Positions 1,005-22,259 of a stretch of DNA of 24,000 bases are shown piece after piece. Each line of letters opens with the position of its first letter. Within the stretch, counting starts at the first letter, position 1. A program made the translations under genes and the position numbers. Below the pieces are notes generated by a model, which did not search any database, was not told where the DNA came from, and saw only the letters and a list, made by a program, of their open reading frames with translations. The stretch comes from Desulfoscipio geothermicus (GTDB lineage Bacteria > Bacillota > Desulfotomaculia > Desulfotomaculales > Desulfallaceae): NCBI GenBank assembly GCA_016841905.1, contig JAENYF010000003.1:1-24000 (forward strand). Direction: 5' to 3'.

Positions 1005-1033
1005 TTGTTATTAATTAGATTTGTTCTTATAAT
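1005..1033 (+). promoter_or_regulatory. Candidate sigma-A promoter of the pilus operon
   Basis: TTGTTA (1005-1010), a 17-bp spacer, then TATAAT (1028-1033), about 105 nt upstream of pilB in an AT-rich gap. Sequence match only. Confidence 0.3.
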
Positions 1034-1142
1034 TTATCTTAATTGGTTAGAATGTGTAACTTAAAGCTCGAACATTGTTTAGCCAGTTAAATAAATAGGT
1101 TAAATGGCTGCCAACTTGATATTAACATGAGGTTAATTGGTT

Positions 1143-2828
1143 ATGATGAACGGGCAAACAAAAAACTTGCTGGGTACCTGGCTGGTTAAAGAGGGCGTTA
1201 TTACCCAGGAACAGCTGGACCGGGCGCTGGAGAAACAAAAAATAAGCCAAGACAAAGAAGACAGCCTGGGTAGAATACTAGTCCGCGACGGGCATTGCAC
1301 TGAAGAGGACATTGCCAGAATAACTGCCAAGAGATCGGGTGCTCCTTATATTTCTCTGGATAATGTAACCATAGACCCCGCAGCCGTAGCAACGCTGCCT
1401 GTGGCAGCCTTGAAAAGATATAGAGCTCTTCCTGTAGCCTTTAACGGGGACAAGCTTACGGTGGCCATGAAGTATCCCAATAACCTCATGGCTATTGATG
1501 ATTTGCGAATAATGACCGGCTTTGATATTAAACCTGTGGTAGTGCCTGACAGCGAGCTGGAGGCGTCTATCGACAAATATAGCCGGGTGGGCATGGATTT
1601 TGAGTACCTCAACGAGGGAGAACAGCAGGAAGAGAATATTAACATAGACTCTGATGAACAGGAATCTAAGCCGGCTGTTCAAATTGCCCATATGATTTTG
1701 GCCCAGGCTGTGGGTTCCAAAGCCAGCGATATACATATTGAACCCTATGAAACCCACTTGCGGGTGCGTTTTCGGATTGACGGGGTACTGCATGATATGA
1801 TGCAGCTGCCCCGTAAAATACATGCGTCTCTGGTTTCACGCATAAAAATCATGGCCAACATGAATATTGCGGAGCGGCGCTTACCCCAGGACGGGCGTAT
1901 GTCTCTGAAAATAGAAGGCAAATCCATTGACGCCCGGGTGGCCTCGCTGCCGGCTAGCTTCGGCGAGAGACTGACCCTGCGGCTGCTTGATCGCTCGTCT
2001 AGAATCATTACCCTGGAAGAACTGGGCGTTGCCCCTGAAATATTGCAGAGGTATCGTGAAGCCTTAGCTATGCCATATGGATGTATACTGGTCACCGGCC
2101 CGACGGGCAGCGGTAAAAGCACTACGCTGTACGCCAGCCTGGCCACAGTGGACAAGGTGGCCAAGAATGTCATTACCGTCGAGGATCCTGTGGAGTACCG
2201 GATGGAAGGCGTAAACCAGGTACAGATTAATACCAGAGCCGGCCTTACCTTTGCTTCGGGACTTCGTTCTATACTGCGCAGCGACCCGGATATCATTATG
2301 GTGGGGGAGATCAGGGACCATGAAACAGCCAAACTGGCCATTGAGTCGGCCCTTACAGGTCACCTAGTTTTTTCTACTTTGCACACCAACGACGCGCCGG
2401 GCGCCGTAAGCCGCTTGACAGAAATGGGCATTGAGCCTTTCCTAATATCATCTTCGCTGGTATGCGTGCTGGCCCAGCGGTTGGTAAGGGTGCTGTGTCC
2501 CAACTGTAAACAATCTTATGAGATGGACCGGGCTCAGCTGGAGGCCATACCCGGCTTCCCCCTGGCCAAAAATGAAACCCGGGTCAAGTTATACCATCCG
2601 GCGGGCTGTATGCGTTGCAGTAATACCGGCTACAAAGGCCGAATAGGGGTATATGAACTGCTGTTTATTTCAGAAACCATCCAAAAAATGGCCCTGGAAC
2701 GTAAATCAGTTAACGAAATAAGAAAAACCGCTATTGCCGAGGGTATGGTAACTTTGCGCCAGGACGGCCTGAACAAAGTTAAAGAGGGTATTACGTCCCT
2801 GGAAGAAATAATGAGGGTGATCATATGA
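1143..2828 (+). CDS. pilB: Type IV pilus assembly (extension) ATPase PilB, GspE family
   Basis: It has an N-terminal T2SSE_N/MshEN-like domain, Walker A GPTGSGKST, VEDPVEY, Walker B IIMVGEIRD, His box TGHLVFSTLHTND and a tetracysteine CPNC...CMRC. The start is ambiguous (TTG 1137, ATG 1143 or ATG 1146), with GAGG at 1129-1132. Confidence 0.93.
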   Translation: MMNGQTKNLLGTWLVKEGVITQEQLDRALEKQKISQDKEDSLGRILVRDGHCTEEDIARITAKRSGAPYISLDNVTIDPAAVATLPVAALKRYRALPVAFNGDKLTVAMKYPNNLMAIDDLRIMTGFDIKPVVVPDSELEASIDKYSRVGMDFEYLNEGEQQEENINIDSDEQESKPAVQIAHMILAQAVGSKASDIHIEPYETHLRVRFRIDGVLHDMMQLPRKIHASLVSRIKIMANMNIAERRLPQDGRMSLKIEGKSIDARVASLPASFGERLTLRLLDRSSRIITLEELGVAPEILQRYREALAMPYGCILVTGPTGSGKSTTLYASLATVDKVAKNVITVEDPVEYRMEGVNQVQINTRAGLTFASGLRSILRSDPDIIMVGEIRDHETAKLAIESALTGHLVFSTLHTNDAPGAVSRLTEMGIEPFLISSSLVCVLAQRLVRVLCPNCKQSYEMDRAQLEAIPGFPLAKNETRVKLYHPAGCMRCSNTGYKGRIGVYELLFISETIQKMALERKSVNEIRKTAIAEGMVTLRQDGLNKVKEGITSLEEIMRVII

Positions 2829-3913
2829 ACGAGCAGCAATTGCCTGACTTGAACAACATCTTGGCCCAAACCGTGGAAATGAAGGGTTCGGACCTGCATA
2901 TTAATGCCGGCGTGTGTCCTGTGGTACGGGTAAACGGGGAACTAGAGCAAATGATAGATTTGCCCCGGCTTACACCCCAGGATATTGAAGACATGGTTTA
3001 TCCAATCCTGAGTCCCAACCAAAGGGAAATGCTTGATAAAGAACTGGAACTGGATTTTTCTTATTCCATACCGGGAGTAAGTCGCTTTCGAGGCAATATC
3101 ATGTGGCAGCGCGGGTCACTGGCGGTGAACTTCCGGGTGGTGGCCGTGAATATTCCCCGTTTTGAAGACCTGGGTCTACCCCCCGCGGTTATAGACCTGT
3201 CCAGGCTGCCCCGCGGGTTGGTACTGGTTACCGGTGCTACCGGCAGTGGCAAGTCCACCACCCTGGCGGCAATTATTAACATGATTAATGAAGAGCGCGC
3301 CCTCAATATCGTCACTGTGGAAGATCCCATTGAATTTTTGCACAGCCACAAGAAATCCATCATTAAACAGCGGGAAGTGGGCAGTGATACCCACTCCTTC
3401 GCGGCTGCACTGCGGCATGTGTTGCGTCATGATCCGGATGTTATCTTAATCGGTGAAATGCGGGACACCGAAAGCATTGCCATAGCCCTCACCGCTGCCG
3501 AAACCGGTCACCTGGTTTTTTCCACCCTGCACACTCAGACTGCCTCGCTGGCCATCCACCGTATTATTGACGTGTTTCCGGAGGGCATGCGCAGCCAGAT
3601 CAGGCAGCAGCTGGCCGACTCCCTGCAGGGCGTGATAGCCCAGCAGCTGGTGCCCAGGACCGACGGGAAGGGCAGAATAGCTGCCATAGAGCTGCTGCTT
3701 ACTAACCCGGCGGTCAAGAATTTGGTTCGCGAAGGTAAGGAACACCAGCTTTACACAGTCATGCAAACCGGCCGCAAAATAGGGATGCAGACAATGGATC
3801 AAGCCCTAGCCAATTTATGTATTACGGGTCTGATATCAAGGGATATGGCACTGGCCCGTGCCGTTGATAAAGTTGAATTGGAACGTGCTCTGCGTAGAAC
3901 TTCGATCAATTAA
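2825..3913 (+). CDS. pilT: Type IV pilus retraction ATPase PilT
   Basis: 362 aa with no GspE_N domain. Motifs are GATGSGKST, VEDPIEF, ILIGEMRD, TGHLVFSTLHT and AVKNLVREGK (the PilT AIRNLIREGK signature). The ATG overlaps the pilB stop (ATGA). Confidence 0.93.
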   Translation: MNEQQLPDLNNILAQTVEMKGSDLHINAGVCPVVRVNGELEQMIDLPRLTPQDIEDMVYPILSPNQREMLDKELELDFSYSIPGVSRFRGNIMWQRGSLAVNFRVVAVNIPRFEDLGLPPAVIDLSRLPRGLVLVTGATGSGKSTTLAAIINMINEERALNIVTVEDPIEFLHSHKKSIIKQREVGSDTHSFAAALRHVLRHDPDVILIGEMRDTESIAIALTAAETGHLVFSTLHTQTASLAIHRIIDVFPEGMRSQIRQQLADSLQGVIAQQLVPRTDGKGRIAAIELLLTNPAVKNLVREGKEHQLYTVMQTGRKIGMQTMDQALANLCITGLISRDMALARAVDKVELERALRRTSIN

Positions 3914-3938: not shown

Positions 3939-5147
3939 ATGCCATTATTTGCTTACCAGGCTATAGATAAATCCGGCCTGCCTGTAGATGGTAAACTGGA
4001 GGCCGAGCATGAGTTTTCAGCTATCTCCAAGCTACAGAAAATGGGCTATACCATACTTGAAGTAGAGGAGGCAAAAGAATCAAGTTTTAGCAAGGCTTTT
4101 ACCCTGCAGCGCAAAGTTAAAATCGGTGATTTAAGCTTTTTTAGCCGCCAGCTGGCTGCTATGCTCGTCGCAGGCATTCCCCTGACCCGCTGTTTATACA
4201 CACTGCATGAACAAACCAAACACCCCGTTTTGAAACGGACTGTAGGGGAAGTGGCCCGCAGCGTGGAAGGTGGCATGAGCCTATCCGAGTCTCTCAGCGC
4301 CCACCCGGGTATTTTTTCATCCATGTATATAGATATGGTCAAGGCGGGTGAAATGGGCGGCATGATCGAGGAAATGCTTAAGCGCCTCTCCGAGCAGCTG
4401 GACCGGGACAAAAGCCTGCGGGATAATATTCGTTCCGCCACCATGTACCCTATCATGGTTATGATATTCGCTGTTTGCGTGGTACTGGCGATGATGTTTT
4501 TTATTGTACCCATATTTATTGGCTTTTTCCCCAAAGACGTGCCGCTGCCCCTGCCGACTCAAGTAGTCATGGGTATAAGTAATTCCCTGCGCGGTTACTG
4601 GTATTTATACATACTTGCTTTTAGCCTGGCCACCGTGGGACTGCGTTTATACCTGTCCAGCCCCGGTGGTAAAAAAACTTTGGATATATTGAAATTCAGG
4701 GTACCGGTATTTGGTGAGCTGATGAAGAAAGCCACTGTTGCCCGCTTTGCCCGTACATTATCAACTCTATTAGGTGGCGGTATTCCCGTGCTGCAAGCCC
4801 TGGAAGCCGCCGGTCCGGCGTCCGGCAGCATGCAGGTTGCCGATGCGGTTAAGCAGACAGGTGCAAGTATACTGGAGGGTCAGGGCATTGCCGGTCCTTT
4901 GAAAGTGAGCGGTTTATTTCCGCCCATGCTGGTCAACATGGTGGCGGTAGGGGAAGAAACCGGGCAACTCCCTACGCTGCTGGGCCGCGTGGCCGAGTTT
5001 TACGAGGAAGAGGTAGCCACCATGACCAAAGGTTTAACAGCCATGCTCGAGCCTTTGATGCTTATATTTATCGGATGTATCGTCGGGGCAATCCTCATAT
5101 CTATATATCTGCCAATATTTACAGTGGTAACATCAATGGGAGGTTGA
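3939..5147 (+). CDS. pilC: Type IV pilus platform protein PilC (GspF family)
   Basis: Two T2SSF repeats (FSRQLAAMLVAGIPL... and FARTLSTLLGGGIPVLQAL...) and hydrophobic TM segments. I moved the start to ATG 3939, behind GAGGTGG (3924-3930), because the ORF-track 5' extension overlaps the pilT end. Confidence 0.92.
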   Translation: MPLFAYQAIDKSGLPVDGKLEAEHEFSAISKLQKMGYTILEVEEAKESSFSKAFTLQRKVKIGDLSFFSRQLAAMLVAGIPLTRCLYTLHEQTKHPVLKRTVGEVARSVEGGMSLSESLSAHPGIFSSMYIDMVKAGEMGGMIEEMLKRLSEQLDRDKSLRDNIRSATMYPIMVMIFAVCVVLAMMFFIVPIFIGFFPKDVPLPLPTQVVMGISNSLRGYWYLYILAFSLATVGLRLYLSSPGGKKTLDILKFRVPVFGELMKKATVARFARTLSTLLGGGIPVLQALEAAGPASGSMQVADAVKQTGASILEGQGIAGPLKVSGLFPPMLVNMVAVGEETGQLPTLLGRVAEFYEEEVATMTKGLTAMLEPLMLIFIGCIVGAILISIYLPIFTVVTSMGG

Positions 5148-5150
5148 GAA

Positions 5151-5753
5151 TTGGAACCGGATCAGATTGCGGAGCATATAGCCGCCTATAGAGCAACCCG
5201 GAATGAAGAACAGTTGGCCCGGGTAGTGCAATACGGCAGCAAGCTGGTGTATCACTTCGCTAATCTTTATGCCAGGGGCAGTGTTAGGGACGACCTGGTC
5301 CAGGCTGGTTTTGAAGGACTGCTCAAGGCCATCAAACGTTTCGACCATAAACGGGGGATTGCTTTTAGTACCTACGCCAGCCACTGTATTTTAGGTGAAA
5401 TAAAACATTATATACGCCAGGAAATTTCTATGAATATACATGCAGATGAAACAAAAGCGACCTGGCTAATACTTGCTGACCGGTTGCCCCGCGTTGATAT
5501 TGGGCAAGGTGGCTTGGCTAATGACCATGATTTAGATGATCGCATTGCCGTAAAAGAAGCAATAGGGGGGTTAAATCAACTGCAGCGCAAAGTTATTTAC
5601 CTCCTGTTTTACCTGGGCTTGCCCCAGGTGCAGGCTGCTCAGCGGTTGGGCATCAGCCAGCGCCAGGTTTCACGTGTTTTGCATGAAAGTTTGAACCAAA
5701 TGGCCCGGTTATTACATGACGGAGAAGGAAAACAGGGAGATGGTTCGTTTTGA
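5151..5753 (+). CDS. Sigma-70 family sigma factor, SigF/SigB/SigG-like (group 3-like) with a shortened region 3
   Basis: Region 2 is DDLVQAGFEGLLKAIKRFDHKRGIAFSTYASHCILGEIKHYIRQE. Region 4.2 is an HTH, QVQAAQRLGISQRQVSRVLHESLNQM. The TTG start lies 7 nt after GGGAGG (5138-5143) and 3 nt after the pilC stop. Its stop overlaps the pilM start (TTGA). Confidence 0.8.
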   Translation: MEPDQIAEHIAAYRATRNEEQLARVVQYGSKLVYHFANLYARGSVRDDLVQAGFEGLLKAIKRFDHKRGIAFSTYASHCILGEIKHYIRQEISMNIHADETKATWLILADRLPRVDIGQGGLANDHDLDDRIAVKEAIGGLNQLQRKVIYLLFYLGLPQVQAAQRLGISQRQVSRVLHESLNQMARLLHDGEGKQGDGSF

Positions 5754-6772
5754 GGCTTTTTAAACCGTCCGGCGCCGTAGGATTGGAATTGGATAACGAA
5801 GTAATCAGGGTGATCGAATTAAACGGTACCGGTAATAAGGCCCAACTGGTATCAGCCGGGCAGGTAGAGATTCCCGGAGGCGCGGTGCAGGAGGGTGTAG
5901 TTAAGGATGTGCAGCTGGTGGCCGATGCGCTAAAAGAATTATGGGCCAAAACGGACATTGACCAGCGTGAAGTGGTAATGGGTGTCGCCAACCAGGGCCT
6001 AATGATGCGCCTCGCTACATTCCCCAAAATCGCCGCGGACAAGCTGGCTAAAGCTTTGCGATTTCAAGTAGATGAATACTTCCCCATACCCCTGACCGAA
6101 CTGGTTTTCGATTTTGCCGTGGTAGGCGAAATCGACGGGGACAAAGGCCCGCAGTTAGAGATACTGCTGGTAGCCATTCGAAAGGACCTGCTATATAACA
6201 GTCTGGATGCTCTGAACGCCGCATCCTTGATTCCGAGAGTGGTGGACGCTTCCCCCCTGGCTTTAATGAGAACTATTGACCAGGATGTTTCAGCGTCGAA
6301 TATGGTTCTAGCGGATATATCCAACGATTTGATTACCCTGCTCCTGGTTGGCGGGGGAGTGCCCCGTTTTGCCAGGGTGGTGCCTCATGCGCAGGTCACA
6401 CAAACCGCCGGCCAGCTAATTTCGTTAGAAAAAACAACTGAACAGCAGGTGGCCGCCACTATGGATGAGGATAACCAGACTCGACCCGGCACCTGGTTTG
6501 ACGGCCTGGCCGGTGATATAAGTTCAACAATTACCTATTACATGGCTCAGGGCCAGGCAGCTGTGGTGGATAAAGTGATTGTCAGCGGCAGGGGCTCGTC
6601 TGTGCAGGGGCTTGTTGAGTATTTGCAGGCAGACTTGGAACTGCCCGTGGAAGTTATTAATCCCCTGACTAATTTGCACGGGCCGGTGCAGGCCGGGGAT
6701 GTTAACCTGCACCGGTATGGCCCCGAGTATGCCGTCAGTATTGGGCTGGCCCTGCGAGGCTTGGAGAAATAA
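5750..6772 (+). CDS. pilM: Type IV pilus assembly protein PilM (actin-like ATPase fold)
   Basis: N-terminus is xxAVGLELDNEVIRVIEL. It also has ALRFQVDEYFPIPLTELVFDF and SPLALMR, with a C-terminal YAVSIGLALRG. The TTG start is coupled to the sigma gene. Confidence 0.88.
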   Translation: MRLFKPSGAVGLELDNEVIRVIELNGTGNKAQLVSAGQVEIPGGAVQEGVVKDVQLVADALKELWAKTDIDQREVVMGVANQGLMMRLATFPKIAADKLAKALRFQVDEYFPIPLTELVFDFAVVGEIDGDKGPQLEILLVAIRKDLLYNSLDALNAASLIPRVVDASPLALMRTIDQDVSASNMVLADISNDLITLLLVGGGVPRFARVVPHAQVTQTAGQLISLEKTTEQQVAATMDEDNQTRPGTWFDGLAGDISSTITYYMAQGQAAVVDKVIVSGRGSSVQGLVEYLQADLELPVEVINPLTNLHGPVQAGDVNLHRYGPEYAVSIGLALRGLEK

Positions 6773-6774
6773 AC

Positions 6775-7437
6775 ATGAATGTAAGCATAAATTTAACTCC
6801 TCTGGAAATTAAACTGCGGCAGGAACAGCAGCGCAGGCGCCGCATGTTATTAACCATCGGGGGCTTTACTTTGGTATTCCTGCTGGGCATTTACTGCGCG
6901 CTGCTGGCCGCCACGTTACATATGCGGGCGGAGATAAACCAGCTGTCTGAACAAAGACAGGCTATGGAAAGTGAGATTCCCGCCCTTGCACCATACGCCC
7001 GGCAGCAGGCTTTAGTACATCAAACGGAATCAATCATTAAACAAGCGGTTGGTGAACCGCTTGACTGGGCAGGCATGCTGTCCGATACCGGACGGTACAT
7101 ACCACAGAACGTTTGGCTTACAAACTTTTCAGCTGTTTGCAAACCGGGTAACGATGCTAAGCAGCCTGCTCAAGGCAGTGGACAGGCCGAGCCTGGTACC
7201 CAGCAAAGCCCCGCATCCGTCGGTGAGATAACTATCCAGGGTTACGCCACAGATCATGCTTCGGTGGCCAAATGGCTGGAGGATATGTGCCAAGTATCCG
7301 GCTTAAGCGGCATAACCTGTCAGTTTTCCTCCGAAAAATCACTGGACGGGGAAGCGGCTGTCTATTTTGAAATAAAAGCCGATATTATACAGGACGTTTC
7401 CGAGCAAAATCAAGCGTCAAAGGAGGGCGGCAGTTGA
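6775..7437 (+). CDS. pilN: Type IV pilus assembly protein PilN
   Basis: INLTP motif, an R-rich stretch, a single TM segment, a coiled coil and a periplasmic-type core. The ATG lies 2 nt after the pilM stop. Confidence 0.75.
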   Translation: MNVSINLTPLEIKLRQEQQRRRRMLLTIGGFTLVFLLGIYCALLAATLHMRAEINQLSEQRQAMESEIPALAPYARQQALVHQTESIIKQAVGEPLDWAGMLSDTGRYIPQNVWLTNFSAVCKPGNDAKQPAQGSGQAEPGTQQSPASVGEITIQGYATDHASVAKWLEDMCQVSGLSGITCQFSSEKSLDGEAAVYFEIKADIIQDVSEQNQASKEGGS

Positions 7438-7970
7438 TGGACAAAAAGCTCTCCGGCAATAATACCCTGCTGGTTGCCCTGGGCGTTATAGCCCTCTTAC
7501 TATTACTATTTTTATTTTATGCCCAATTGGGCGCGCTAAAAGAGGCCCGTGTGGCGCTGCAGCAAGAACAACAGGCTTTTGATCTGGCCCAAAACAGGCT
7601 GCAGGAACTGCTGCAGATACGGGATCAGGCCGTCTACTTCGAGGATCAGGCCGAAAGCATGGAAAGATTGCTGCCCACTGAGCCTGAAGAGGATCTACTG
7701 ATGCTGGACATCGACACCATTTGCCAAGATGCCGGCGTGGAACTAAAACAAATCCGATTTGAAAAACGGGTTGACCGGAAGGATTATACGGAAATGCCCC
7801 TTAAAATGACTTTTGAAGGCGGTTACTACAGCATACTCAGCCTGCTCAATCAAATGCAGGAAGGGCCGCGCGCCCTGCGGCTGGATGAAGTTAAAGTCGT
7901 CCAAGGCGGCCAGAATCAGAGCGGTTTGAAAGCGGATATCACAGCCAGCGCTTTTTATGCCGCCCGCTAA
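7437..7970 (+). CDS. pilO: Type IV pilus assembly protein PilO
   Basis: N-terminal TM segment, a coiled coil (LQQEQQAFDLAQNRLQELL), then a ferredoxin-like core (YTEMPLKMTFEGGYYSILSLLNQM...LRLDEV). ATG 7437 (or TTG 7434) overlaps the pilN stop. AAGGAGGG is at 7420-7427. Confidence 0.7.
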   Translation: MDKKLSGNNTLLVALGVIALLLLLFLFYAQLGALKEARVALQQEQQAFDLAQNRLQELLQIRDQAVYFEDQAESMERLLPTEPEEDLLMLDIDTICQDAGVELKQIRFEKRVDRKDYTEMPLKMTFEGGYYSILSLLNQMQEGPRALRLDEVKVVQGGQNQSGLKADITASAFYAAR

Positions 7971-7997: not shown

Positions 7998-8477
7998 ATG
8001 GCAAGCAAAATATCCAGGGAACAAATTGCCTCATTCATTGAGAAAAACAAAAAGGGTGTAATACTGGGCGGAGTTTTATTGGTTGTCGTCCTGGTTGGTC
8101 TGGTGCTACTTATTAAATTAAATTACGGTTCTACCGAGGAGGACCAGACCCAGCTGCCAAAGGTCGCGGCTGAAGATAAAGAGCAAAAGGTCTCCGCCGG
8201 TCCCGTTACCACCTATCTGCCGGAAACTAAGCGAAAAATAGAGGATACGGGCCCTGAGCCAAGGGACCCCTTTGCCAGGAATATGATTTTAAAAGGGGTT
8301 ATCGTGGGAGGCAATAGTAATCTGGCCATTATTGAATCGGGCGGCACTGCTTATATTGCCGGTGTGGGCGAAAAAATTTCCGGTGAATGGACGGTTGCCG
8401 AAATAACCGGAGATGTAGTGGTTTTACGATCAGGCACACAGACCATGCAGTTGGAATTCCACGGTAACGCCAAATAA
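7998..8477 (+). CDS. PilP-like / GspC-HR-like pilus assembly protein with an N-terminal TM anchor
   Basis: TM segment GVILGGVLLVVVLVGLVLLI and a charged linker, followed by RDPFARNMILKGVIVGGNSNLAIIESGGTAYIAGVGEKISGEWTVAEITGDVVVL. That is the DPF plus beta-sandwich pattern of PilP. GGAAGGAG lies 9 nt upstream. Confidence 0.5.
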   Translation: MASKISREQIASFIEKNKKGVILGGVLLVVVLVGLVLLIKLNYGSTEEDQTQLPKVAAEDKEQKVSAGPVTTYLPETKRKIEDTGPEPRDPFARNMILKGVIVGGNSNLAIIESGGTAYIAGVGEKISGEWTVAEITGDVVVLRSGTQTMQLEFHGNAK

Positions 8478-8513
8478 TGTGCGTCACACCGGGTGAAGGA
8501 GGGGGTTAGGACG

Positions 8514-9764
8514 ATGTCCTGCTCATATGTTAATAAACTTACCTGGGGCGTAGCTATTTTACTTGTTTTAACGGTTATAGCCTGCACTGCGGCATATGCC
8601 GACGGTGAAGCAATGCCGGCTTCCTCAACAACCGAATCCCTCAGCGCAGTGGAGGGTGCTTACGTGGAGGTAGCAGACGAGGAAAGCGGCGAGAAGATTT
8701 CCCTGGATCTGCGGGGTGTGGATTTAAGAGACGCGCTATCCGCGCTGGCCATGGAGATGAACGCCAATATTATCCTGCTGGACCCCAAACCCGTTAAAGT
8801 AAACTTCCAGGCAGATAATACCACCGCCAGGCAGGCCCTGGAATTAATCATCCAGTCTCAGGAACTGGCCTATCTGCAAAACGGCCAGATCATCGTGGTC
8901 GGCCCGGCTGATAAATTGAAAAAGGATTTTTTTAACCAGATGATTTTAACCAGGTTTAGCCTTTTTTACATACCGCCGTCTGAAATGAAGACCTTGCTGG
9001 GCGAACTGGGATTGGATATGACGGCTATTACCGTAAATACCAACGAGAACGCCATTTGGGTGCAGGGCACTGCCCAGGCGTTAAAAAAAGTGCGGGAAAT
9101 AATATATTCGGTGGACAACATGGAAAACCAGGTTTCCCTGGAGCATAAAACCGCTACCCTGACTCAGGTATCTCCGGAAAGGGCCGTGGAATTACTGGCC
9201 GGTGTCGGGGTGGAACTAAAACGCTACGTGCTGCTGGATAACCGGCTGCTGGTATTTGACACCGAAGTGCTCTCCCGCTGGGAGCAGGTGCAAACCATGA
9301 TCGAACAGCTGGATATTCAGGCTGCCAATAAGAACAAGGTGTTTGTATTCCAGCTCAAAAACATAGCAGCCGGTGATGCTGCGGATAGGTTGGAGGAATT
9401 TGGTTTTAGTGAAGTAAAAACCATTGCTTACAACTATGACCGGTTCGGGCATGAATTGATGGTGATCTGCCCACCGTATTTGGAAACCCAGCTGCGCAGC
9501 GCTTTGGTGAGCATGGACACAACCCGTCAGGCAACCAGGGCACCGGTATTAAAAGAATCCGGGGAAAATGCCCATACTAGATTAAGCGCTATGCGTGATT
9601 TACTTAGCGAGTTATCAGGTGTGCCTGTAGCACAGCTTCATATATCAAGGAACCTTTCCGGGGATAAGGATAATCCGGAGTATGTACTCTGGGTGGAGGA
9701 AACACCGGATAAGATTCAGTTGGTTAAGGATTTGATTGACGAGATGGGGGATAAGAAAAATTAG
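8514..9764 (+). CDS. Secretin N-terminal-domain protein (STN/N0 plus several N1-like repeats) lacking the secretin beta-barrel domain
   Basis: A signal peptide with a possible lipobox VIAC or an AYA/D cleavage site. The N0-like stretch is ISLDLRGVDLRDALSALAMEMNANIIL...ARQALELIIQSQELAYLQNGQIIVVGP. N1-like repeats include TRFSLFYIPPSEMKTLLG...IWVQGTAQALKKVREIIYSVD and VFVFQLKNIAAGDAADRLEEFG. The protein ends with no barrel domain. ATG 8514 follows GAAGGAGGGGG. Confidence 0.6.
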   Translation: MSCSYVNKLTWGVAILLVLTVIACTAAYADGEAMPASSTTESLSAVEGAYVEVADEESGEKISLDLRGVDLRDALSALAMEMNANIILLDPKPVKVNFQADNTTARQALELIIQSQELAYLQNGQIIVVGPADKLKKDFFNQMILTRFSLFYIPPSEMKTLLGELGLDMTAITVNTNENAIWVQGTAQALKKVREIIYSVDNMENQVSLEHKTATLTQVSPERAVELLAGVGVELKRYVLLDNRLLVFDTEVLSRWEQVQTMIEQLDIQAANKNKVFVFQLKNIAAGDAADRLEEFGFSEVKTIAYNYDRFGHELMVICPPYLETQLRSALVSMDTTRQATRAPVLKESGENAHTRLSAMRDLLSELSGVPVAQLHISRNLSGDKDNPEYVLWVEETPDKIQLVKDLIDEMGDKKN

Positions 9765-9805
9765 CCAAAAATTTTGGTTAAATGTGTCTAAAAACGAGTG
9801 CGATC

Positions 9806-9814
9806 TGATATAAT
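9806..9814 (+). promoter_or_regulatory. Candidate extended -10 promoter element for pilA
   Basis: TGaTATAAT at 9806-9814, about 65 nt upstream of the pilA ATG. A second TGgTAAAAT is at 9820-9828. There is no good -35. Sequence match only. Confidence 0.3.
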
Positions 9815-9878
9815 GATTTTGGTAAAATGTGCTTTAACCCCTATCGGGGTGAAATTTCATAAAAAAGGAGGTGAAAAA

Positions 9879-10319
9879 ATGTATCAAAAAATTTGTCGTG
9901 CGCTGAGGAACCGTAAAGGGTTCACTCTGGTTGAATTGATGGTGGTTGTGATCATCATTGGTATTTTGGTGGCAATTGCTATTCCGATTTATAATAACGT
10001 TCAAATTAATGCGAAGATAAACGCTCATAACGCAAATGTGCGTACACTTCAAGGGGCTGCCGCAATGATGTATTCAGAGAATGCACCATTATCGGGGGAT
10101 AAAACATGGGCAGCTTCTGACGCCGGTACAACTGCAACAGACTGGAAAAGTTATTTAGCAAAGTATCCAACTAACCCCATTGGTGCTACCATTCCTACTG
10201 GTTATAGTGTTGTCAGTGGTAGCGGTGGAGCTTGGGCAGATGGGTATACGGTTTCGATTACTACTGCCGGTGTTGTAACTGTTACACCGGGTATGCTAGA
10301 AAAAACTGAATCTGAATAA
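9879..10319 (+). CDS. pilA: Major type IV pilin (prepilin with class III signal peptide)
   Basis: AAGGAGGTG lies 7 nt upstream of ATG 9879. Leader MYQKICRALRNRKG is followed by FTLVELMVVVIIIGILVAIAIPIY (G-1, F+1, E+5). It is small, has no cysteines and carries a T/G/S-rich C-terminal half. Confidence 0.9.
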   Translation: MYQKICRALRNRKGFTLVELMVVVIIIGILVAIAIPIYNNVQINAKINAHNANVRTLQGAAAMMYSENAPLSGDKTWAASDAGTTATDWKSYLAKYPTNPIGATIPTGYSVVSGSGGAWADGYTVSITTAGVVTVTPGMLEKTESE

Positions 10320-10592: not shown

Positions 10593-10841
10593 ATGCACAT
10601 CAATGATTTACTTAAACAAGCAGTTGTTCGGGGTGCCTCTGACTTGCATATTATGGCGGGAGTTGCGCCTTTACTAAGAATAAATGGTGAGCTGACTTCA
10701 TTAAACTTCCCACTGTTTACAGCGGATAATACTCTAGAATTGGCCAGGCAAATACTTAACACGGAAAAACTAAACGTGCTAGAGCAGTTTGGTGAGGTGG
10801 ATTTGTCCACTGAATGCCAGGGTTTGGGGTATTTCCGGGTT
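10593..10841 (+). pseudogene. pilT: Truncated second pilT (N-terminal ~83 codons only)
   Basis: MHINDLLKQAVVRGASDLHIMAGVAPLLRINGEL...GYFRV aligns with the N-terminus of the intact PilT (GSDLHINAGVCPVVRVNGEL...SRFRG). Similarity stops at about 10841, and the frame then runs into REP copy 4. No Walker A or any later motif is present. Confidence 0.75.
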
Positions 10842-10864
10842 AAGAAGCTCATTGGAAGCTCATT

Positions 10865-10897
10865 GGTGCCAGGCACCCAACTTGTTAACTTATTATT
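10865..10897 (+). repeat. REP-like unit copy 4 (left boundary of the RAYT array)
   Basis: GGTGCCAGGCACCCAACTTGTTAACTTATTATT. It is directly preceded by a tandem 11-bp duplication of GAAGCTCATTG (10844-10854 and 10855-10865). Confidence 0.8.
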
Positions 10898-10906
10898 GAA
10901 AGCAGA

Positions 10907-10939
10907 AACACCTCTTGTTAAAATGTAACAAGGGGTGTT
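10907..10939 (+). promoter_or_regulatory. 5'-UTR hairpin sequestering the RBS of the RAYT gene
   Basis: AACACCTCTTGTTA (10907-10920) pairs with TAACAAGGGGTGTT (10926-10939) over 14 bp with one G-U pair and a 5-nt loop. The 3' arm contains the SD AAGGGGTG, 7 nt before TTG 10945. Paralogous hairpins lie at 11831-11863 and 11986-12019. Confidence 0.5.
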
Positions 10940-10944
10940 GATTT

Positions 10945-11778
10945 TTGGGTAGGAAACCACGAGTAGAATATTCAGGAGCTTTATACCATGTGATACAACG
11001 TGGAAACAATAGAGAGTACATATTTGAAAAAAGTGAAGATAAGATGTTTTTGTTAAATGAAATTAAAGAAAGAACAACAAACACCGGGTTAAAGCTTTAC
11101 GGTTATGTAATTATGGATAATCATTATCATCTAGTTTTGCAGGTTGGAGATGACCCGTTAAGCAAGCTAATGCACTTTATCAACAGTAGCTATGGCCGCT
11201 ATTATAACCGCGAACATAATCGTACAGGGCATGTATACGATGGCCGTTACAAAGCTATACATATTCAGAATGAAAAATATCTCTTGGCAGTACTAAGGTA
11301 TGTGCACCGGAACCCGGTACAGGCCGGCATATGTGCTCAAGTTAACAAATACAGATGGAGCAGCGACATGTATTACCGCTATAATCGAGAAGGTTTTGTT
11401 GATATAGATTTGCTGTTGGGTATATTATCCAATGATAGGAAAAAAGCAATAATGCATTATACTTCATTTATGGATCAGGAAGATAGTACTGATTATGAAT
11501 GTGGAGAAGTAATTGGCGATAAATCTTTTATGACCTCAATTATTCCACCTAAACAGGAAATTGTTAAAAAGAGCTTGGATGAAATTTTAACCGATACCGG
11601 TGTCTGTTCTACAGATTTTGTGTTAATAAAAAACGGCTCAAGAAAAAGACACCTTGTAAAATACAAAGTGAGCTATGCTGAAGCAGCGTTAAAACAGAAA
11701 TATACCTACAAGAGCATAGGTGAGAATATTAACCTTTCAGCTACTGCAATTTCCAAGCTATTGAGTAGAGTTGATTAG
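10945..11778 (+). CDS. REP-associated tyrosine (Y1, HUH) transposase-like protein, IS200/IS605 TnpA superfamily (RAYT-like), with a C-terminal DnaA-C/Trp-repressor-like HTH
   Basis: Motifs are RKPRVEYSGALYHVIQRGNNREYIF, the HUH motif in YVIMDNHYHLVLQ, GHVYDGRYKA, and a catalytic Tyr context RYVHRNPVQAG...YRWSS. The C-terminal segment SRKRHLVKYKVSYAEAALKQKYTYKSIGENINLSATAISKLL looks like an HTH. The start is TTG. Confidence 0.85.
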   Translation: MGRKPRVEYSGALYHVIQRGNNREYIFEKSEDKMFLLNEIKERTTNTGLKLYGYVIMDNHYHLVLQVGDDPLSKLMHFINSSYGRYYNREHNRTGHVYDGRYKAIHIQNEKYLLAVLRYVHRNPVQAGICAQVNKYRWSSDMYYRYNREGFVDIDLLLGILSNDRKKAIMHYTSFMDQEDSTDYECGEVIGDKSFMTSIIPPKQEIVKKSLDEILTDTGVCSTDFVLIKNGSRKRHLVKYKVSYAEAALKQKYTYKSIGENINLSATAISKLLSRVD

Positions 11779-12024: not shown

Positions 12025-12582
12025 TTGGACAGGAAACCAAGAGTATAGTATTCAGGAGCTTTATACCATGTGATACAGCGTGGAAACAATAGAGAGTACA
12101 TATTTGAAAAAAGTGAAGATAAGATGTTTTTGTTAAATGAAATTAAAGAAAGAACAACAAACACCGGGTTAAAGCTTTACGGTTATGTAATTATGGATAA
12201 TCATTACCACTTAGTTTTGCAGGTTGAAGATGTCCCGTTAAGCAAGTTGATGCACTTTATCAACAGTAGCTATGGCCGCTATTATAACCGTGAACATATT
12301 GATATAGATTTGCTGTTGGGCATATTATCCAATGATAGGGAAAAAGCAATTATGCATTATACTTCATTTATGGATCAGGAAGATAGTACTGATTATGAAT
12401 GTGGAGAAGTAATTGGCGATAAATCTTTTATGACCTCAATTATTCCACCTAAACAGGAAATTGTTAAAAAGAGCTTGGATGAAATTTTAACTGATACTGG
12501 TGTCTGTTCTTACAAGAGCATAGGCGAGAATATTAACCTTTCAGCTGCGGCAATTTCCAAGCTATTGAGTGGAGTTGATTAG
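12025..12582 (+). pseudogene. Decayed RAYT copy (nonsense codon plus two in-frame deletions)
   Basis: It is near-identical to 10945-11778 but has TAG at codon 8 (12046-12048). One deletion joins YNREH to IDIDLLLG, removing GHVYDGRY...RYVHRNP and so the catalytic Tyr. A second deletion removes TDFVLIKNGSRKRHLVKYKVSYAEAALKQKYT. ORF-track entry 12070-12582 is the re-opened remnant. Confidence 0.8.
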
Positions 12583-12685: not shown

Positions 12686-14320
12686 ATGGAGGTGGTCCGC
12701 TTGTTCAAAAGAACCCTGTTAAATGTTTTATTGGCTGTATCTTTATGTTTTTGTGTGGTTTTGTCTACCAGTGCGGCGCAACCTACTGCGAAAGACCTGG
12801 TCATAGCCAGCATTAAAAACTTTGATTTAGGTGTTGACAAAGGCTTTTACGAAAAGTCTGAGGATGTAACCAGTATTAAGATTACTGAGTTTGACGGGAG
12901 CGTTACTAAAGAGATAGGCCAATTTAAAGGTGCGTCTATTGACCTTTTATCAAAACTAGATGCAGCTAATAATGTTATTAAAGTTAGCTATACCACAGAC
13001 ATTGATGGTAATAAACACAACGGCGATATCTATTTAAAAGATGATAAGGTTATCTTAAATAAAGATATCTTTATCTTACTTAAAGAATTCGGGCTCGATG
13101 CATTTAAGGATAACCCTACCATTTTAGAACAAAGTCCTGAGTACCTATATTTATCTAATGAACAGCTTAAGAGTGTCTGGGAACAGATGCTAAGTTATCA
13201 AAACCAGCAACTACCCGAGGAATACAAAGATTTACTGCTTTTCCTGGTGGAAGCCATACCGGATCAGTATTTCAGCCTATCTGCCAGCAAAGTTACTTTA
13301 CAATTAGACCAAAACGGTTTTGAAGATGTTATATACAACCTGTTAACTAAAATAAAAAATGAGAAAGATAGAGCAGCCGACATTGTAGTTAATTTAAACA
13401 AATACAGTTATGAACAGATGGGAGTTACTCCGGAGCAAATAAAACAATCAATTATTACCGGCATTGACAGCATGCCTGTTATATCCCGGGAGCAAATAAA
13501 ACTGTTTAGCAGCTTCGTGGAAGTCAATGATTTTATTTATGAGGCGTCTCTTATACCCGGCGGGCAGAAAAACTTTAATCTGGACCTAGGCTTTAAATCT
13601 CCCGACGGCTCAGTGGGAGGACAGCTTGCCGTTGTTATAGACAGTGTCGGGACAAAAGATAACCTGGAAGGCACTTACAATATTTCAGGTAACTTTAATG
13701 CTCAAGACGGCCCCCAGTTTAATTTTGAAATGAATTGTTTGTGTAATTACCAAGCAGAGGCCGCTTATACCGATACCACTGTCAAGGCGACAGCTAAAAA
13801 TAATACCACCGGTGAATTATTATTAAACTTTGCTGCTACAGCTGATTCCACCACTAAAGTTAATCATAACCTGGTTGTAAATGCACCGGAATTAAATGCC
13901 GCTAATAGTACCGATATAACATCTTTAATTCCGGGACCGGAGCAGGTAACTGTAATCGAACCACCCATTACTGAGGAAACCGGTTCAATAGTTATAGTAA
14001 ACGGAAATATCATCGATACTGAAGTGAAACCTGCAATTAAAGACAACAAACATCCCATAGTGCCGGCCAGAGCTGTATTGGAAGCACTGGGCTGTGGGGT
14101 TAAATGGTATGCTCCCAATGAGGTGCACATCACCGCAGGTGATAAAACAATTTTAGTATTTATTAATGAAAGCAAATATAAGGTCAACGGGCTGGAAAAA
14201 GCTTTAAGTGTACCGGCCTACCTTGAAGCAGGTCGCACAATGATTCCGACCAGCCTTATTGATGAGGAATTAGGTGCTGTAATTGAACTGGTTAACGGAG
14301 CTGTAGTTATAACAAAATAA
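12686..14320 (+). CDS. Secreted protein with a C-terminal copper amine oxidase N-terminal-like (stalk) domain; N-terminal ~440 aa of unknown function
   Basis: Signal peptide is LLNVLLAVSLCFCVVLSTSAA. The C-terminus IVIVNGNIID...IVPARAVLEALGCGVKWYAPNEVHITAGDKTILVFINESKYKVNG...GRTMIPTSLIDEELGAVIEL matches the Cu_amine_oxidN1 repeat pattern. The start may instead be TTG 12701, behind GGAGGTGG. Confidence 0.8.
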   Translation: MEVVRLFKRTLLNVLLAVSLCFCVVLSTSAAQPTAKDLVIASIKNFDLGVDKGFYEKSEDVTSIKITEFDGSVTKEIGQFKGASIDLLSKLDAANNVIKVSYTTDIDGNKHNGDIYLKDDKVILNKDIFILLKEFGLDAFKDNPTILEQSPEYLYLSNEQLKSVWEQMLSYQNQQLPEEYKDLLLFLVEAIPDQYFSLSASKVTLQLDQNGFEDVIYNLLTKIKNEKDRAADIVVNLNKYSYEQMGVTPEQIKQSIITGIDSMPVISREQIKLFSSFVEVNDFIYEASLIPGGQKNFNLDLGFKSPDGSVGGQLAVVIDSVGTKDNLEGTYNISGNFNAQDGPQFNFEMNCLCNYQAEAAYTDTTVKATAKNNTTGELLLNFAATADSTTKVNHNLVVNAPELNAANSTDITSLIPGPEQVTVIEPPITEETGSIVIVNGNIIDTEVKPAIKDNKHPIVPARAVLEALGCGVKWYAPNEVHITAGDKTILVFINESKYKVNGLEKALSVPAYLEAGRTMIPTSLIDEELGAVIELVNGAVVITK

Positions 14321-14379: not shown

Positions 14380-14574
14380 GCTATTTAAAAATGTTTTATT
14401 ATTACATAGTGAAATTTAGACGCTCACCAGGGATATTCATGTGTAGCAGACCTATGTTAGTTCTAAGATATTTTAATAAAATACGAGAATCAAAATAATT
14501 GCTAAGTATTTAATTAATAATATAATTTTTTGGTATATAATTTTATTACATAAGCTTTGACTGGGGGCAACATC

Positions 14575-15726
14575 GTGAGTTTACTTGTTCTAGGAAATAA
14601 AAGGGGTGCGGCACTACCTATTGTTCTTATGGTTATGCTTGTATTAGGATTACTGGGAGTTAGCTTGTGGCAATACAGTATGGCAGATACCCTTCAAGTA
14701 TCGAGAGATATAAAACATATGCAAGCACATTATGTTGCTCGTGCAGGGGCTAATATGGGCTTTAAAGTTATAAGTGATTTATTTAATTCTGATAATAAAC
14801 CGGAAAATATTGAAGACCTAAGTACAGAATTGGCATCTCGTGTTATCCAAGGAGATATTGCCACCGGTAACTTCACAGTAAAGTTTCATGATTTTGATTT
14901 AGATAGTAATAAGATTAAAATAACTTCAGAAGGTGTATTAAAAACGGATCCAAGCATTAAGGATTTAGTAGTCTTAACAGTTTTTTTATCAATCTTTGAT
15001 CACGTTATAATAGATATAGAGAGACCCGCTGTTTGGTTTGGGGGCAATAGTCATAATGCTTTACATAAGGCATTTGATAATCCGTTACCCGATAATGGTG
15101 TAATTCTTTATAGTACCAATAACCAATGTCTGCAATATGTGCAAAACCAGGAGAACACTTTTTTAGCATATTCTATTGAATTTCGAGCGCAGGAATATAG
15201 TAAAAACGACACACGAGAGTACAGTTTTGAGGTTAAAGAATCTCGAAGTATTAGTCTGGATGCGAAATATATTATTTTTAAGGGAATTGTATCACTTGAG
15301 GATAAAAAGGATGGTAATAACATGGCAATAATTAACCTTTTATCTTCTTCAACGGAACGAACTTTTGAAGGGTTAGCATTAGAAGAAAAGGGCCTTGACT
15401 TAAGAAATGACTTGGATATTGGGGATAGTATACCTTTAGAAACCATTAGAATGAATCGTTTTGGTGTGGTAGTTTTTGAAGACGATGTGATTTGGAAAAA
15501 AGGAGACAACAGTGAAGAAACAATAATATTGCCTGGATATTATTTATATAATGAAGCAGGAGTTACCTTAGCGCAAGATGTGGTTCATCCAAATAATGTT
15601 GGAGAGTACTATTCTAATAAGTTAATAAAAATCACAAATGAAGAAAAAATTAAAGATATTTTTGAAGATTCAAGAGTAATTAGTTCAGAATATAACATAG
15701 ATAAAATTATATGGGGAAGGGGCTAA
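14575..15726 (+). CDS. PilX-N-like pilus assembly / minor pilin-like protein
   Basis: The N-terminus KRGAALPIVLMVMLVLGLLGVSLWQYS...AHYVARAGANMG fits the PilX N-terminal pattern (RG-A/S-hydrophobic helix ... AEAG). There is no canonical G/F..E cleavage site. GTG 14575 behind GGGGG is preferred over TTG 14557. Confidence 0.6.
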   Translation: MSLLVLGNKRGAALPIVLMVMLVLGLLGVSLWQYSMADTLQVSRDIKHMQAHYVARAGANMGFKVISDLFNSDNKPENIEDLSTELASRVIQGDIATGNFTVKFHDFDLDSNKIKITSEGVLKTDPSIKDLVVLTVFLSIFDHVIIDIERPAVWFGGNSHNALHKAFDNPLPDNGVILYSTNNQCLQYVQNQENTFLAYSIEFRAQEYSKNDTREYSFEVKESRSISLDAKYIIFKGIVSLEDKKDGNNMAIINLLSSSTERTFEGLALEEKGLDLRNDLDIGDSIPLETIRMNRFGVVVFEDDVIWKKGDNSEETIILPGYYLYNEAGVTLAQDVVHPNNVGEYYSNKLIKITNEEKIKDIFEDSRVISSEYNIDKIIWGRG

Positions 15727-15762
15727 TTATTATTTAGAGTATCTGTTTAAGAGGGTGGGTTT

Positions 15763-16113
15763 GTGGGTAAAAGGAAACAGCATGAAAATGGCTTTGCTCT
15801 AGTGGAAGTATTAATAGCGTTGATTATCTTATTAATTATTGTATTTGCATTCGTCTCTCTTTTTAGCTTTAGTTTTTCAGGTGTAATGTCAGCCGGTTAT
15901 AGTAGTGATGCTCTTTATGAAGCACAACAAAAAATGGAGAATGCTTTATTGGATACAACATATTTAGGTGATAATGCCGGAGAAGTAGTGCGAACACCTA
16001 ATACTATAAACGGGATATATGGACAAGAACTAACTGTGAACATTGATTATTTAGACGGCAATGGTAATGTGAGAACAGTTTCTTTGACTACTTTTTTACC
16101 AGATAATATGTAA
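15763..16113 (+). CDS. Minor pilin (prepilin-type N-terminal cleavage/methylation domain)
   Basis: MGKRKQHENG followed by FALVEVLIALIILLIIVFAF (G-1, F+1, E+5). It is small (116 aa). The GTG start follows GAGGGTGGG. Confidence 0.8.
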   Translation: MGKRKQHENGFALVEVLIALIILLIIVFAFVSLFSFSFSGVMSAGYSSDALYEAQQKMENALLDTTYLGDNAGEVVRTPNTINGIYGQELTVNIDYLDGNGNVRTVSLTTFLPDNM

Positions 16114-16134
16114 AATAAATCAGGTGATGCTTCG

Positions 16135-17178: not shown

Positions 17179-17514
17179 AAATACGTTCTAGTTGATTAAA
17201 CTTCAATTATTCTTTAAGCCTATTTTATTTAAGCACTCTGATATATTAACAGTCCGTTTAAATTTCCTTGTCCCCCCCTGCTTTTAAAACTGACATCCTC
17301 ATAAGCCAAACCGACCGCGGTGGGGGAACAGGTGTTCTTTTCTCGTGCCGAATTATATGGATAAAATTGTTGAAAAATGTCTAAATCTCGAAGGTTTTTC
17401 TTTAGTTTGTCGAGAATTTTTATAAAAATTAGTAGGAGCAAAGATTTTAGCAAAATAATGGAATGTAAACAAACCTTCCGGTTGGTTAACTCCGGAGGAT
17501 TCGAGGTGTTAATA

Positions 17515-20896: not shown

Positions 20897-20903
20897 ACAA
20901 ATA

Positions 20904-21248
20904 ATGGAAATCCCTATTTTAAAAATAGACAACTGCTTGGTGGTATCTATCCAGGGCAGTTTAACCGATACGGCGGCCCTTGAGCTTCAAGAGAACCTGG
21001 CCCGGGACATATCACAACAAGAACCTGTGGGAGTACTGGTTGACCTAACCGCGGTGGAAATTGTAGATAGCTTTGTGGCTAAAGTATTAAGCGATATATC
21101 TTCCATGTCCAAGCTAATGGGGGTTAATGTGGTAGTAACCGGAATTCAACCGGGTGTGGCGATTACCTTAATAGAGCTGGGTATTACCCTAGAAGGTATA
21201 CGTACTGCATTAAATTTACAAAAAGGTATTGATCTTCTCCGTGCATAG
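20904..21248 (+). CDS. rsbS: Stressosome STAS protein RsbS
   Basis: IPILKIDNCLVVSIQGSL...VDLTAVEIVDSFVAKVLSDISSMSKLMGVNVVVTGIQPGVAITLIELG is close to my recollection of B. subtilis RsbS, including the phosphorylatable Ser in IVDSF. Confidence 0.9.
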   Translation: MEIPILKIDNCLVVSIQGSLTDTAALELQENLARDISQQEPVGVLVDLTAVEIVDSFVAKVLSDISSMSKLMGVNVVVTGIQPGVAITLIELGITLEGIRTALNLQKGIDLLRA

Positions 21249-21263
21249 TGAGGAGTGAAAAGT

Positions 21264-22234: not shown

Positions 22235-22259
22235 CCAACTTAAAAAAGGGGGCGGGCCT

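Follow-up and report, generated by a model that had tools for sequence, protein, structure and literature searches.

The type IV pilus (T4P) clusters of Bacillota contain a widespread clade of alternative sigma factors which is related to SigB, SigF and SigG and lacks a curated model. One of its members is encoded in the T4P operon located in the first 24,000 nucleotides (nt) of contig JAENYF010000003.1 of Desulfoscipio geothermicus (assembly GCA_016841905.1); this whole stretch is referred to here as the window, and its features are listed in Table 1. From comparison of the loci of this family we infer that a conserved two-block motif is the cognate promoter of the pilus sigma factors, and that their local target is the major pilin gene (pilA). 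Little is understood of how Gram-positive anaerobes regulate their T4P; the cyclic di-GMP (c-di-GMP) riboswitch of C. difficile is the best-known example.

A sigma factor clade located in pilus clusters

The sigma gene of the window encodes a protein of 200 amino acids and lies between pilC and pilM, as an initial annotation made from the sequence of the window had proposed. Pfam recognizes Sigma70_r2 at residues 31-90 (E 2.8e-14) and Sigma70_r4 at residues 137-184 (E 1.2e-9), and the domains are confidently predicted by AlphaFold2, so that the protein has both the region 2 and the region 4 domains of the sigma-70 family; Pfam gave no Sigma70_r3 match in the protein. The gene starts 3 nt after the pilC stop codon with its ribosome-binding site (RBS) in the 3' end of pilC, and its stop codon (TGA, 5751-5753) overlaps the TTG start codon of pilM (5750-5752) as TTGA; all of this had been read correctly in the initial annotation. 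The TTG start codon of the sigma gene is also backed by homology, as conserved N-terminal positions (e.g., Y13) align from residue 5 onward. Judged from these junctions, the sigma gene is translationally coupled to both pilC and pilM.

The best NCBIfam model for the protein was that of SigB/F/G (TIGR02980), which matched in two separate stretches with a score of 107.3 bits against a cut-off of 234.35. The scores were also below the equivalog cut-offs for SigF (TIGR02885, 99.3 vs. 321 bits), SigG (NF006071, 88.1 vs. 372 bits) and SigB (TIGR02941, 83.6 vs. 315 bits), and below those of the FliA-type model (TIGR02479, 55 vs. 189.6 bits) and of the NF005644 ‘SigF’ model (94.2 vs. 261 bits), which we take to be the cyanobacterial-type model. 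The generic superfamily model TIGR02937 was passed (92.7 vs. 42.9 bits). Full-length relatives miss the TIGR02980 cut-off as well, the best of 24 family members reaching an E value of 5e-42. A profile of the window protein and its relatives found G. stearothermophilus SigF (1L0O, 4.3e-49) and S. aureus SigB (8X6G, 1e-45) as best matches in the PDB, and a fold search agreed with the profile search and returned SigB among the top matches. The SigF/B/G-like character noted initially is therefore confirmed by model, profile and fold matches. In databases the relatives are named only ‘sigma-70 family’ or ‘sigma-B factor’, and no description of a pilus-linked sigma family was found in the literature searched on sigma factors of Gram-positive pilus clusters, an absence which is not proof of novelty.

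The location of the gene is conserved. We surveyed one genome per species (80 loci) and identified neighboring genes by tblastn with the Pil proteins of the window. T4P genes are found beside the sigma gene in at least 72 of the 80 loci; pilC, sigma and pilM are contiguous in 33 loci, and minor pilin genes lie in between in 5 more. The window shows the same order (pilB-pilT-pilC-sigma-pilM-N-O), and the order in Syntrophomonadaceae is instead pilB-sigma(-pilA). Taxa carrying the pilus sigma include Desulfoscipio, Sporotomaculum, Desulfocucumis, Desulforudis, four heliobacteria, Dethiobacter, Symbiobacterium, Acidaminobacter, Syntrophomonadaceae and Oscillospiraceae, together with a few metagenome-assembled genomes labelled outside Bacillota. 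What the initial annotation described as an insertion between pilC and pilM is thus a gene order conserved across several classes of Bacillota. The nearest homologues of the window sigma are 40-54% identical and 221-246 amino acids long, and many of them have the Pfam r3 domain; the closest (P0121) is located on a 1-kb contig. Two others show the range of arrangements: aroB-pilB-pilT-pilC-sigma-pilM-N-O at the P0002 locus, and a sigma gene between a Secretin_N gene and a pilin gene at the P0003 locus. PilB of the window is nearest to PilB of Desulfoscipio and Sporotomaculum (72% identity).

Variation around the sigma gene was observed at several loci. At L026 an insert of 3.5-4 kb separates sigma from pilM, and similar inserts occur at L011, L015, L030 and L068; an anti-sigma gene in this insert was considered and rejected for L026, as its contents are minor pilins. 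In many Syntrophomonadaceae loci a second, partial or divergent sigma-like match lies directly upstream of the pilus sigma gene and after pilB (L038, 8841-9413; L043, 8868-9131; L044, 2075-2653; L049, 8661-8903; also L056, L057, L059, L060, L062, and L067), which suggests tandem paralogues.

A conserved motif upstream of the pilin gene

When the sequences preceding the pilin genes were compared, a two-block motif emerged with the consensus TGTCTAA-N14/15-GGTATAAC; it lies about 100 nt before the major pilin gene in about 57 related loci as well as in the window. The search covered the DNA flanking the sigma gene at the family loci (1.25 Mb), in which the regular expression GTCT[AG]N-N13-16-GNTATAA gave 63 matches compared to 4.45 ± 1.7 in shuffled sequences. 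The motif usually occurs once per locus, and 53 of the matches have an open reading frame (ORF) with a prepilin signal peptide within 600 nt (median 100). A position weight matrix (PWM) built from 56 sites shows T (96%) followed by GTCTAA, a spacer of 14 (46 sites) or 15 nt (10 sites), and GGTATAA followed by C (78%). The promoter recognized by SigB has been described as GTTTWW, ~14 bp, GGGWAW in S. aureus (PMC11156646) and as RGGXTTRA-N14-GGGTAT in B. subtilis (PMC2532724). In its sequence the pilin-gene motif fits the SigB-type architecture, including the unusually short spacer.

To relate the motif to the protein, the contacts in the open complex of S. aureus SigB were transferred to the window sigma by alignment. 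The -35 is read in S. aureus SigB by S235, Q236 and R241, whose counterparts in the window sigma are S169, Q170 and R175; in the family, Q170 and R175 are near-invariant. An invariant Arg of the pilus family (R171) takes the place of M237, the SigB residue in touch with the A opposite -33T, and this replacement fits the change from T to C, as Arg would face the G paired with the C of GTCTAA. R100, the reader of -14G, corresponds to R89, which is invariant in the pilus family. The contact residues were also compared between loci with and without the motif; most of the motif-negative loci are short contigs that do not contain the pilA region.

The pilA leader of Syntrophomonadaceae contains a c-di-GMP-I riboswitch, and the motif precedes it by about 50 nt, which is the position expected of a promoter. 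The c-di-GMP-I riboswitches are located at 9747-9832 and 10854-10938 in L039, at 8658-8747 and 10886-10972 in L043, at 10832-10918 in L065 and at 10838-10922 in L067; L039 and L043 each carry a further riboswitch upstream of the sigma gene or genes. These positions suggest layered control by c-di-GMP and sigma. No Rfam match was found in the window.

The putative pilA promoter of the window is the sole PWM match in the 24 kb (9778-9819, score 21.3; genuine sites score 18.8-34.9), with a predicted transcription start near 9821. Its -35 is perfect and the A-rich upstream flank is fully preserved. Its -10 reads GATATAAT compared to GGTATAAC in the family, and thus carries A instead of G at -13 (G-13A). 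A further repeated sequence, TTGGTWA(N)AATGTG (13-14 nt), was noticed post hoc and occurs three times in the window (1043-1056, 9774-9786 and 9819-9831) compared to 0 times in 100 shuffles: just downstream of the promoter candidate of pilB, overlapping the upstream edge of the pilA -35, and at the predicted pilA start. It was not seen in the pilA upstream regions of the closest relatives. It may be an operator for another regulator; that it forms a second promoter was rejected, as no matching -10 is found downstream.

Upstream of pilB a sigma-A-type promoter candidate matches 10 of 12 consensus positions. It is the sole such site in the region 700-1200, in which shuffled sequences have 1.2 by chance on average, and judged by position and consensus it likely drives the pilB-pilT-pilC-sigma-pilMNO operon. 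According to the mechanism that we propose, transcription from this promoter would yield the sigma factor together with the products of pilB-pilT-pilC and pilM-N-O, and the coupling to pilC and pilM would tie the synthesis of sigma to that of the machine. The sigma factor would direct RNA polymerase to one SigB-type promoter before the major pilin gene; in the window, sigma4 would bind the intact -35 and sigma2 the slightly altered -10. Pilin synthesis would then follow and scale with the expression of the assembly machine, a feed-forward logic as in the control of flagellin by FliA and of pilA1 by cyanobacterial SigF. A feed-forward circuit acting on pilin promoters had been put forward initially: for pilA the conserved SigB-type motif supports it, whereas no PWM match was found in the 12.65 kb and 14.5 kb regions, which had also been named as targets.

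Loss of sigma3 and the probable function of the window copy

The AlphaFold2 model of the window sigma (mean predicted local distance difference test, pLDDT, 81.5) has confident helical sigma2 (residues 3-99) and sigma4 (residues 125-193) domains, which are separated by residues 97-124 with pLDDT < 50 and no secondary structure. Aligned to G. stearothermophilus SigF (1L0O), residues 18-96 correspond to 26-105 and residues 123-179 to 181-237, which leaves a linker of 27 residues where SigF has 76; the initial estimate of about 39 residues against roughly 90 in SigF agrees with this, and the layout similar to that of extracytoplasmic function (ECF) sigma factors, also noted initially, is found by Pfam, alignment and AlphaFold2. 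The protein lacks the RPGW sequence at which sigma3 starts, the (Y)ESFxLPIED motif of region 3.2 and most of sigma3.1, in three separate gaps. A sigma3 domain hidden by a frameshift was rejected, as the other frames contain stops and show no similarity. The window sigma is thus a SigB/F/G-related protein with an ECF-like two-domain layout which has lost sigma3. The folded sigma3 and region 3.2 linker that define the layout of group 3 are absent from it and sigma3 is present in its orthologues. As modelled, it would be a lineage-specific derivative in which a disordered linker of about 28 residues joins sigma2 to sigma4.

Among the species representatives, all 78 complete relatives are 221-278 amino acids long and have sigma3, and the window sigma is the only one without it. 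The loss of region 3 reported in the initial annotation therefore holds for the window and is not a trait of the family, although independent sigma3-less relatives exist. An exhaustive search of 1.8 billion representatives returned seven relatives in which sigma3 is absent or shortened (P0123, P0127, P0133, P0137, P0142, P0151, and P0153), and the loci of two of them (P0123 and P0137) were examined; both are T4P-linked. In P0123 (181 amino acids) a clean excision joins RPGF to ESFKLPVED, and in the complete genome that encodes it the locus reads pilT-sigma-pilin-pilB-pilC-pilD-pilM with TGTCTAA-N14-GGTATAAC before the pilin gene. The P0137 gene lies between pilin genes and is accompanied by TGTCTGA-N14-GGAATAAA. 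Loss of sigma3 thus recurs among the relatives, and both the pilus context and the promoter can persist despite it, which favors a working two-domain sigma factor.

The sequence of the window sigma outside sigma3 is well preserved. It deviates at 10 of the 42 columns conserved in ≥90% of the family, 8 of which fall within sigma3 or region 3.2; outside sigma3, 32 of 34 conserved positions are kept, including GEIRH and LGISQRKVSR, the exceptions being R85K and T158P. The divergence of sigma2 and sigma4 between the window and its relatives is similar to that between intact pairs at equal PilB divergence (0.550 vs. 0.548 and 0.608 vs. 0.602), indicating that both DNA-binding domains are still under constraint. 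R85 maps next to R97 and R100 of S. aureus SigB and belongs to the final helix of sigma2, by which the -10 is read in its upstream part. R85K and G-13A, which are found together in this one genome, may represent a matched compensatory protein-DNA pair. Loss of sigma3 as the cause of G-13A was also considered; this idea is weakened by the mapping of the -14/-13 contacts to the retained last sigma2 helix, and by the canonical GGTATAAC that accompanies the sigma3-less P0123.

Several observations nevertheless weigh against a functional sigma factor acting on pilA in the window. The region 3.2 motif that it lacks is retained by the sigma3-less P0123 and P0137 as ESFxLPxED-like sequence. All 83 relatives have R85 and only the window has Lys at this position, all 56 other sites have G at -13, and mutation of -13 strongly reduces SigB-dependent transcription in S. 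aureus (PMC11156646). Read together with T9806 (T-15) and T-7, the window promoter contains TGATATAAT, a perfect sigma-A extended -10 (TGnTATAAT), so that pilA may be independent of the pilus sigma. In addition, the sigma2/sigma4 identity to the closest relatives is somewhat low (0.569 vs. 0.659 ± 0.055). These changes, together with the loss of RPGW, the predicted disorder of residues 97-124 and the importance of -13 for SigB-type recognition, could mean that the window copy is a decaying, dead remnant and that sigma-A has taken over pilA via the new extended -10. We regard this explanation as unlikely, although it deserves serious consideration. The frame of 200 codons is intact, with an RBS and overlaps on both sides, and the 32 conserved positions and the normal rate of divergence speak against decay. 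The -35 TGTCTAA and its A-rich flank are preserved, which would be needless for a pure extended -10 promoter of sigma-A, and TGGTATAAT is also the form of several family promoters in genomes with an intact sigma (L015, L073, and L074), so that compatibility with sigma-A is not special to the window. Finally, loss of sigma3 recurs in pilus-linked relatives. Given the intact reading frame, the coupling on both sides, the perfect -35, the conserved positions and the normal divergence, we consider it reasonably probable that the window sigma is still functional.

The other two explanations concern the family as a whole and the origin of the protein. TGTCTAA-N14-GGTATAAC could be a sigma-A promoter combined with the site of another regulator, in which case the pilus sigma would control genes elsewhere. 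TATAAC indeed matches five of six positions of the sigma-A -10, G-14 resembles an extended -10, the motif has no copy before the sigma gene or the operon that would serve autoregulation, and in a search limited to the flanks of sigma genes the linkage could reflect the shared pilus context. However, the motif resembles SigB-type promoters in its two-block architecture, with a rigid spacing of 14/15 nt, an invariant GG and a TGTCTAA block, and a sigma-70 scan for two hexamers does not call the pilA site. The sigma4 contacts fit GTCTAA, including the Met-to-Arg change opposite the T-to-C change, and there is usually one site per locus, at the pilin gene; we therefore think this explanation quite improbable. 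Even less credible, and in our view very improbable, is that the window sigma is a housekeeping SigF, SigG or SigB orthologue whose location is accidental, or a genuine member of the ECF sigma factors (group 4). Its best models are indeed those of SigB/F/G, SigF and SigG, and its two-domain layout and its match to TIGR02937 would suit an ECF sigma factor. Yet its equivalog scores are far under the cut-offs, full-length relatives also fail TIGR02980, and the position in the pilus cluster is conserved in at least 72 of the 80 species surveyed; the intact region 3 and the orthology to a sporulation sigma which the initial annotation had named as the contrary case are not found. Group 3 proteins that have sigma3 are its nearest relatives, and since sigma3 is present in the orthologues the two-domain form arose secondarily and not by descent from ECF sigma factors.

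Neighboring genes and comparison with known sigma factors

The T4P cluster of the window is complete and located downstream of aroB (Table 1).

Table 1. Coordinates of the pilus operon, the sigma gene with its domains, and the putative promoters in the window.
Feature	Position	Strand	Details
Sigma-A-type promoter candidate upstream of pilB	1005-1033	+	TTGTTA-17-TATAAT; consensus match only
pilB	1137-2828	+	Pfam T2SSE 3.6e-138 plus MshEN
pilT	2825-3913	+	Pfam T2SSE 4.7e-48
pilC	Probable ATG 3939, end 5147	+	Stop TGA 5145-5147; Pfam T2SSF 1.4e-59
RBS of sigma gene	5138-5143	+	GGGAGG; inside pilC 3' end, 7 nt before TTG 5151
Pilus sigma gene	5151-5753	+	TTG start; 200 amino acids; Pfam Sigma70_r2 and Sigma70_r4
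Sigma2 domain	5157-5447 (residues 3-99)	+	AlphaFold2 pLDDT >90; contains R85K (codon 5403-5405)
Degenerate sigma3/region 3.2 remnant	5439-5522 (residues 97-124)	+	Predicted disordered; RPGW and (Y)ESFxLPIED absent
Sigma4 domain	5523-5729 (residues 125-193)	+	-35-reading S169, Q170, R171 and R175 conserved
pilM	5750-6772	+	TTG start overlapping sigma stop; Pfam
pilN	6775-7437	+	Pfam
pilO	7434-7970	+	Pfam
T2SSC/PilP-like gene	7998-8477	+	Pfam
STN and Secretin_N protein gene	8493-9764	+	No secretin domain; Pfam
Putative pilA promoter	9785-9814	+	-35 TGTCTAA 9785-9791; spacer 15; -10 GATATAAT 9807-9814
pilA (major pilin, putative target)	9879-10319	+	ATG 9879; leader MYQKICRALRNRKG, then FTLVELMVV; Pfam N_methyl 1.4e-9

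The protein encoded upstream of pilA (423 amino acids) has STN and Secretin_N domains of the N0/N1 type and no C-terminal secretin domain. It is a conserved member of the operon, with matches at the T4P loci of many relatives, and may be a remnant or a repurposed N-terminus of PilQ; the lineages that carry it are presumably single-membraned. Directly after pilA follows an IS200-like Y1 transposase gene (10945-11778), with a second, internally deleted copy at 12070-12582, and at the L010 locus of Desulfoscipio geothermicus a transposase with 85% identity occupies the corresponding site behind pilA (16005-16835). Upstream of the transposase, an ORF of 111 amino acids (10593-10928) resembles the N-terminus of PilT/PilU ATPases and may derive from a second retraction ATPase that the transposase insertion has truncated. 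Between the transposase copies and the minor pilin genes (14557-17178), one of which encodes a protein with a He_PIG Ig-like domain, lies a gene for a protein of 544 amino acids (12686-14320) with a C-terminal Cu_amine_oxidN1 domain and an N-terminus which by eye resembles a signal peptide.

No anti-sigma kinase or STAS gene flanks the sigma gene in the window or in the pilC-sigma-pilM loci, which agrees with the initial annotation, and the nearest such module in the window is 14 kb downstream of sigma (STAS/STAS/HATPase_c_2/PP2C, 20072-22234). This Rsb-like module was considered as a partner-switching regulator of the pilus sigma and rejected, as it is not conserved beside the pilus loci of the relatives. 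In full, the genes at 20072-23645 encode, in order, an RsbR-like STAS protein, an RsbS-like STAS protein, an RsbT/W-like HATPase_c_2 kinase, a PP2C phosphatase and a protein with a GGDEF motif, the last seen by eye in the translation without Pfam, and look like a stressosome with GGDEF output. They are preceded, beyond the pilus cluster, by a gene for a PAS-PAS-GAF-GAF-HD (HD_5) protein (17377-19965). Structural neighbors of the pilus sigma include WhiG bound by the c-di-GMP-dependent anti-sigma factor RsiG (6PFJ, 6PFV, and 7LQ4), an example of direct control of a group 3 sigma factor by c-di-GMP; by analogy this may have a bearing on the pilus loci, near which c-di-GMP genes and riboswitches are found.

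If the proposed circuit is true, it would provide a simple and testable rule for the timing of pilin synthesis in Desulfotomaculia, heliobacteria, Dethiobacter, Syntrophomonadaceae and many Clostridia. It would also supply annotators with a name and regulon marker for proteins so far labelled only as ‘sigma-70 family’, and would form a link to the cyanobacterial SigF-pilA1 circuit. Repeated loss of sigma3 in a family with a fixed context would offer a rare chance to study how SigB-type sigma factors manage the -10 without sigma3, and bears on the origin of ECF-like architectures. A broader view, which we put forward tentatively and hold to be less probable than its opposite, is that of an ancient dedicated pilus sigma in Bacillota, hard-wired into the T4P operon and acting on a single conserved pilin promoter, in which repeated losses of sigma3 (in the window; in P0123; in P0133, P0137, P0142 and P0153; and in P0151) form a series from group 3 to ECF-like proteins with the same promoter and context. 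The control of pilA1 by cyanobacterial SigF is the reason to think that this family might extend to Terrabacteria.

Among solved structures, SigB of S. aureus and B. subtilis is one of the closest relatives of the pilus sigma by profile, second to SigF (1L0O). Both types recognize, or are predicted to recognize, a two-block promoter with a spacer of about 14 bp, which is GTCTAA/GGTAT in the pilus clade compared to GTTTWW/GGGWAW for SigB, and the Ser, Gln and Arg that contact the -35 are conserved, as is the Arg contacting -14G (R89). Unlike SigB, the pilus sigma is not accompanied by adjacent RsbV/RsbW, is encoded inside the pilus operon and has an apparent single local target; moreover, SigB uses sigma3 to help read the -10, a domain which the window copy does not have. 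As proposed for the pilus sigma, cyanobacterial SigF is a SigB-related group 3 sigma factor dedicated to the major pilin gene. Its pilA1 promoter in Synechocystis is TAGGC/GGTAA (PMC2532724), in which the -12 core GGTAA resembles GGTAT(AAC) and the -35/-32 element differs from that of the pilus clade. Cyanobacterial SigF also autoregulates its own gene, whereas in the pilus clade neither the sigma gene nor the operon is preceded by the motif.

FliA (sigma-28, SigD) has the regulatory logic proposed for the pilus sigma: it is an organelle-specific group 3 sigma factor, encoded with the genes of the machine, which activates the gene of the filament subunit. FliA belongs to another clade, recognizes TAAA-N15-GCCGATAT and is held in check by the exported anti-sigma factor FlgM, whereas no anti-sigma candidate was found for the pilus sigma. 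ECF sigma factors such as SigH and SigL of M. tuberculosis have the same layout of sigma2, linker (about 28-38 residues) and sigma4 as the window copy. In contrast to these, the window sigma has group 3 affinity and group 3 orthologues and no neighboring cognate anti-sigma gene, and its two-domain state is a recent loss inside one orthologous family. The pilus-operon-embedded sigma factors with their defined putative pilin promoter represent a clade for which no description was found, and not a new principle, among sigma factors of this kind.

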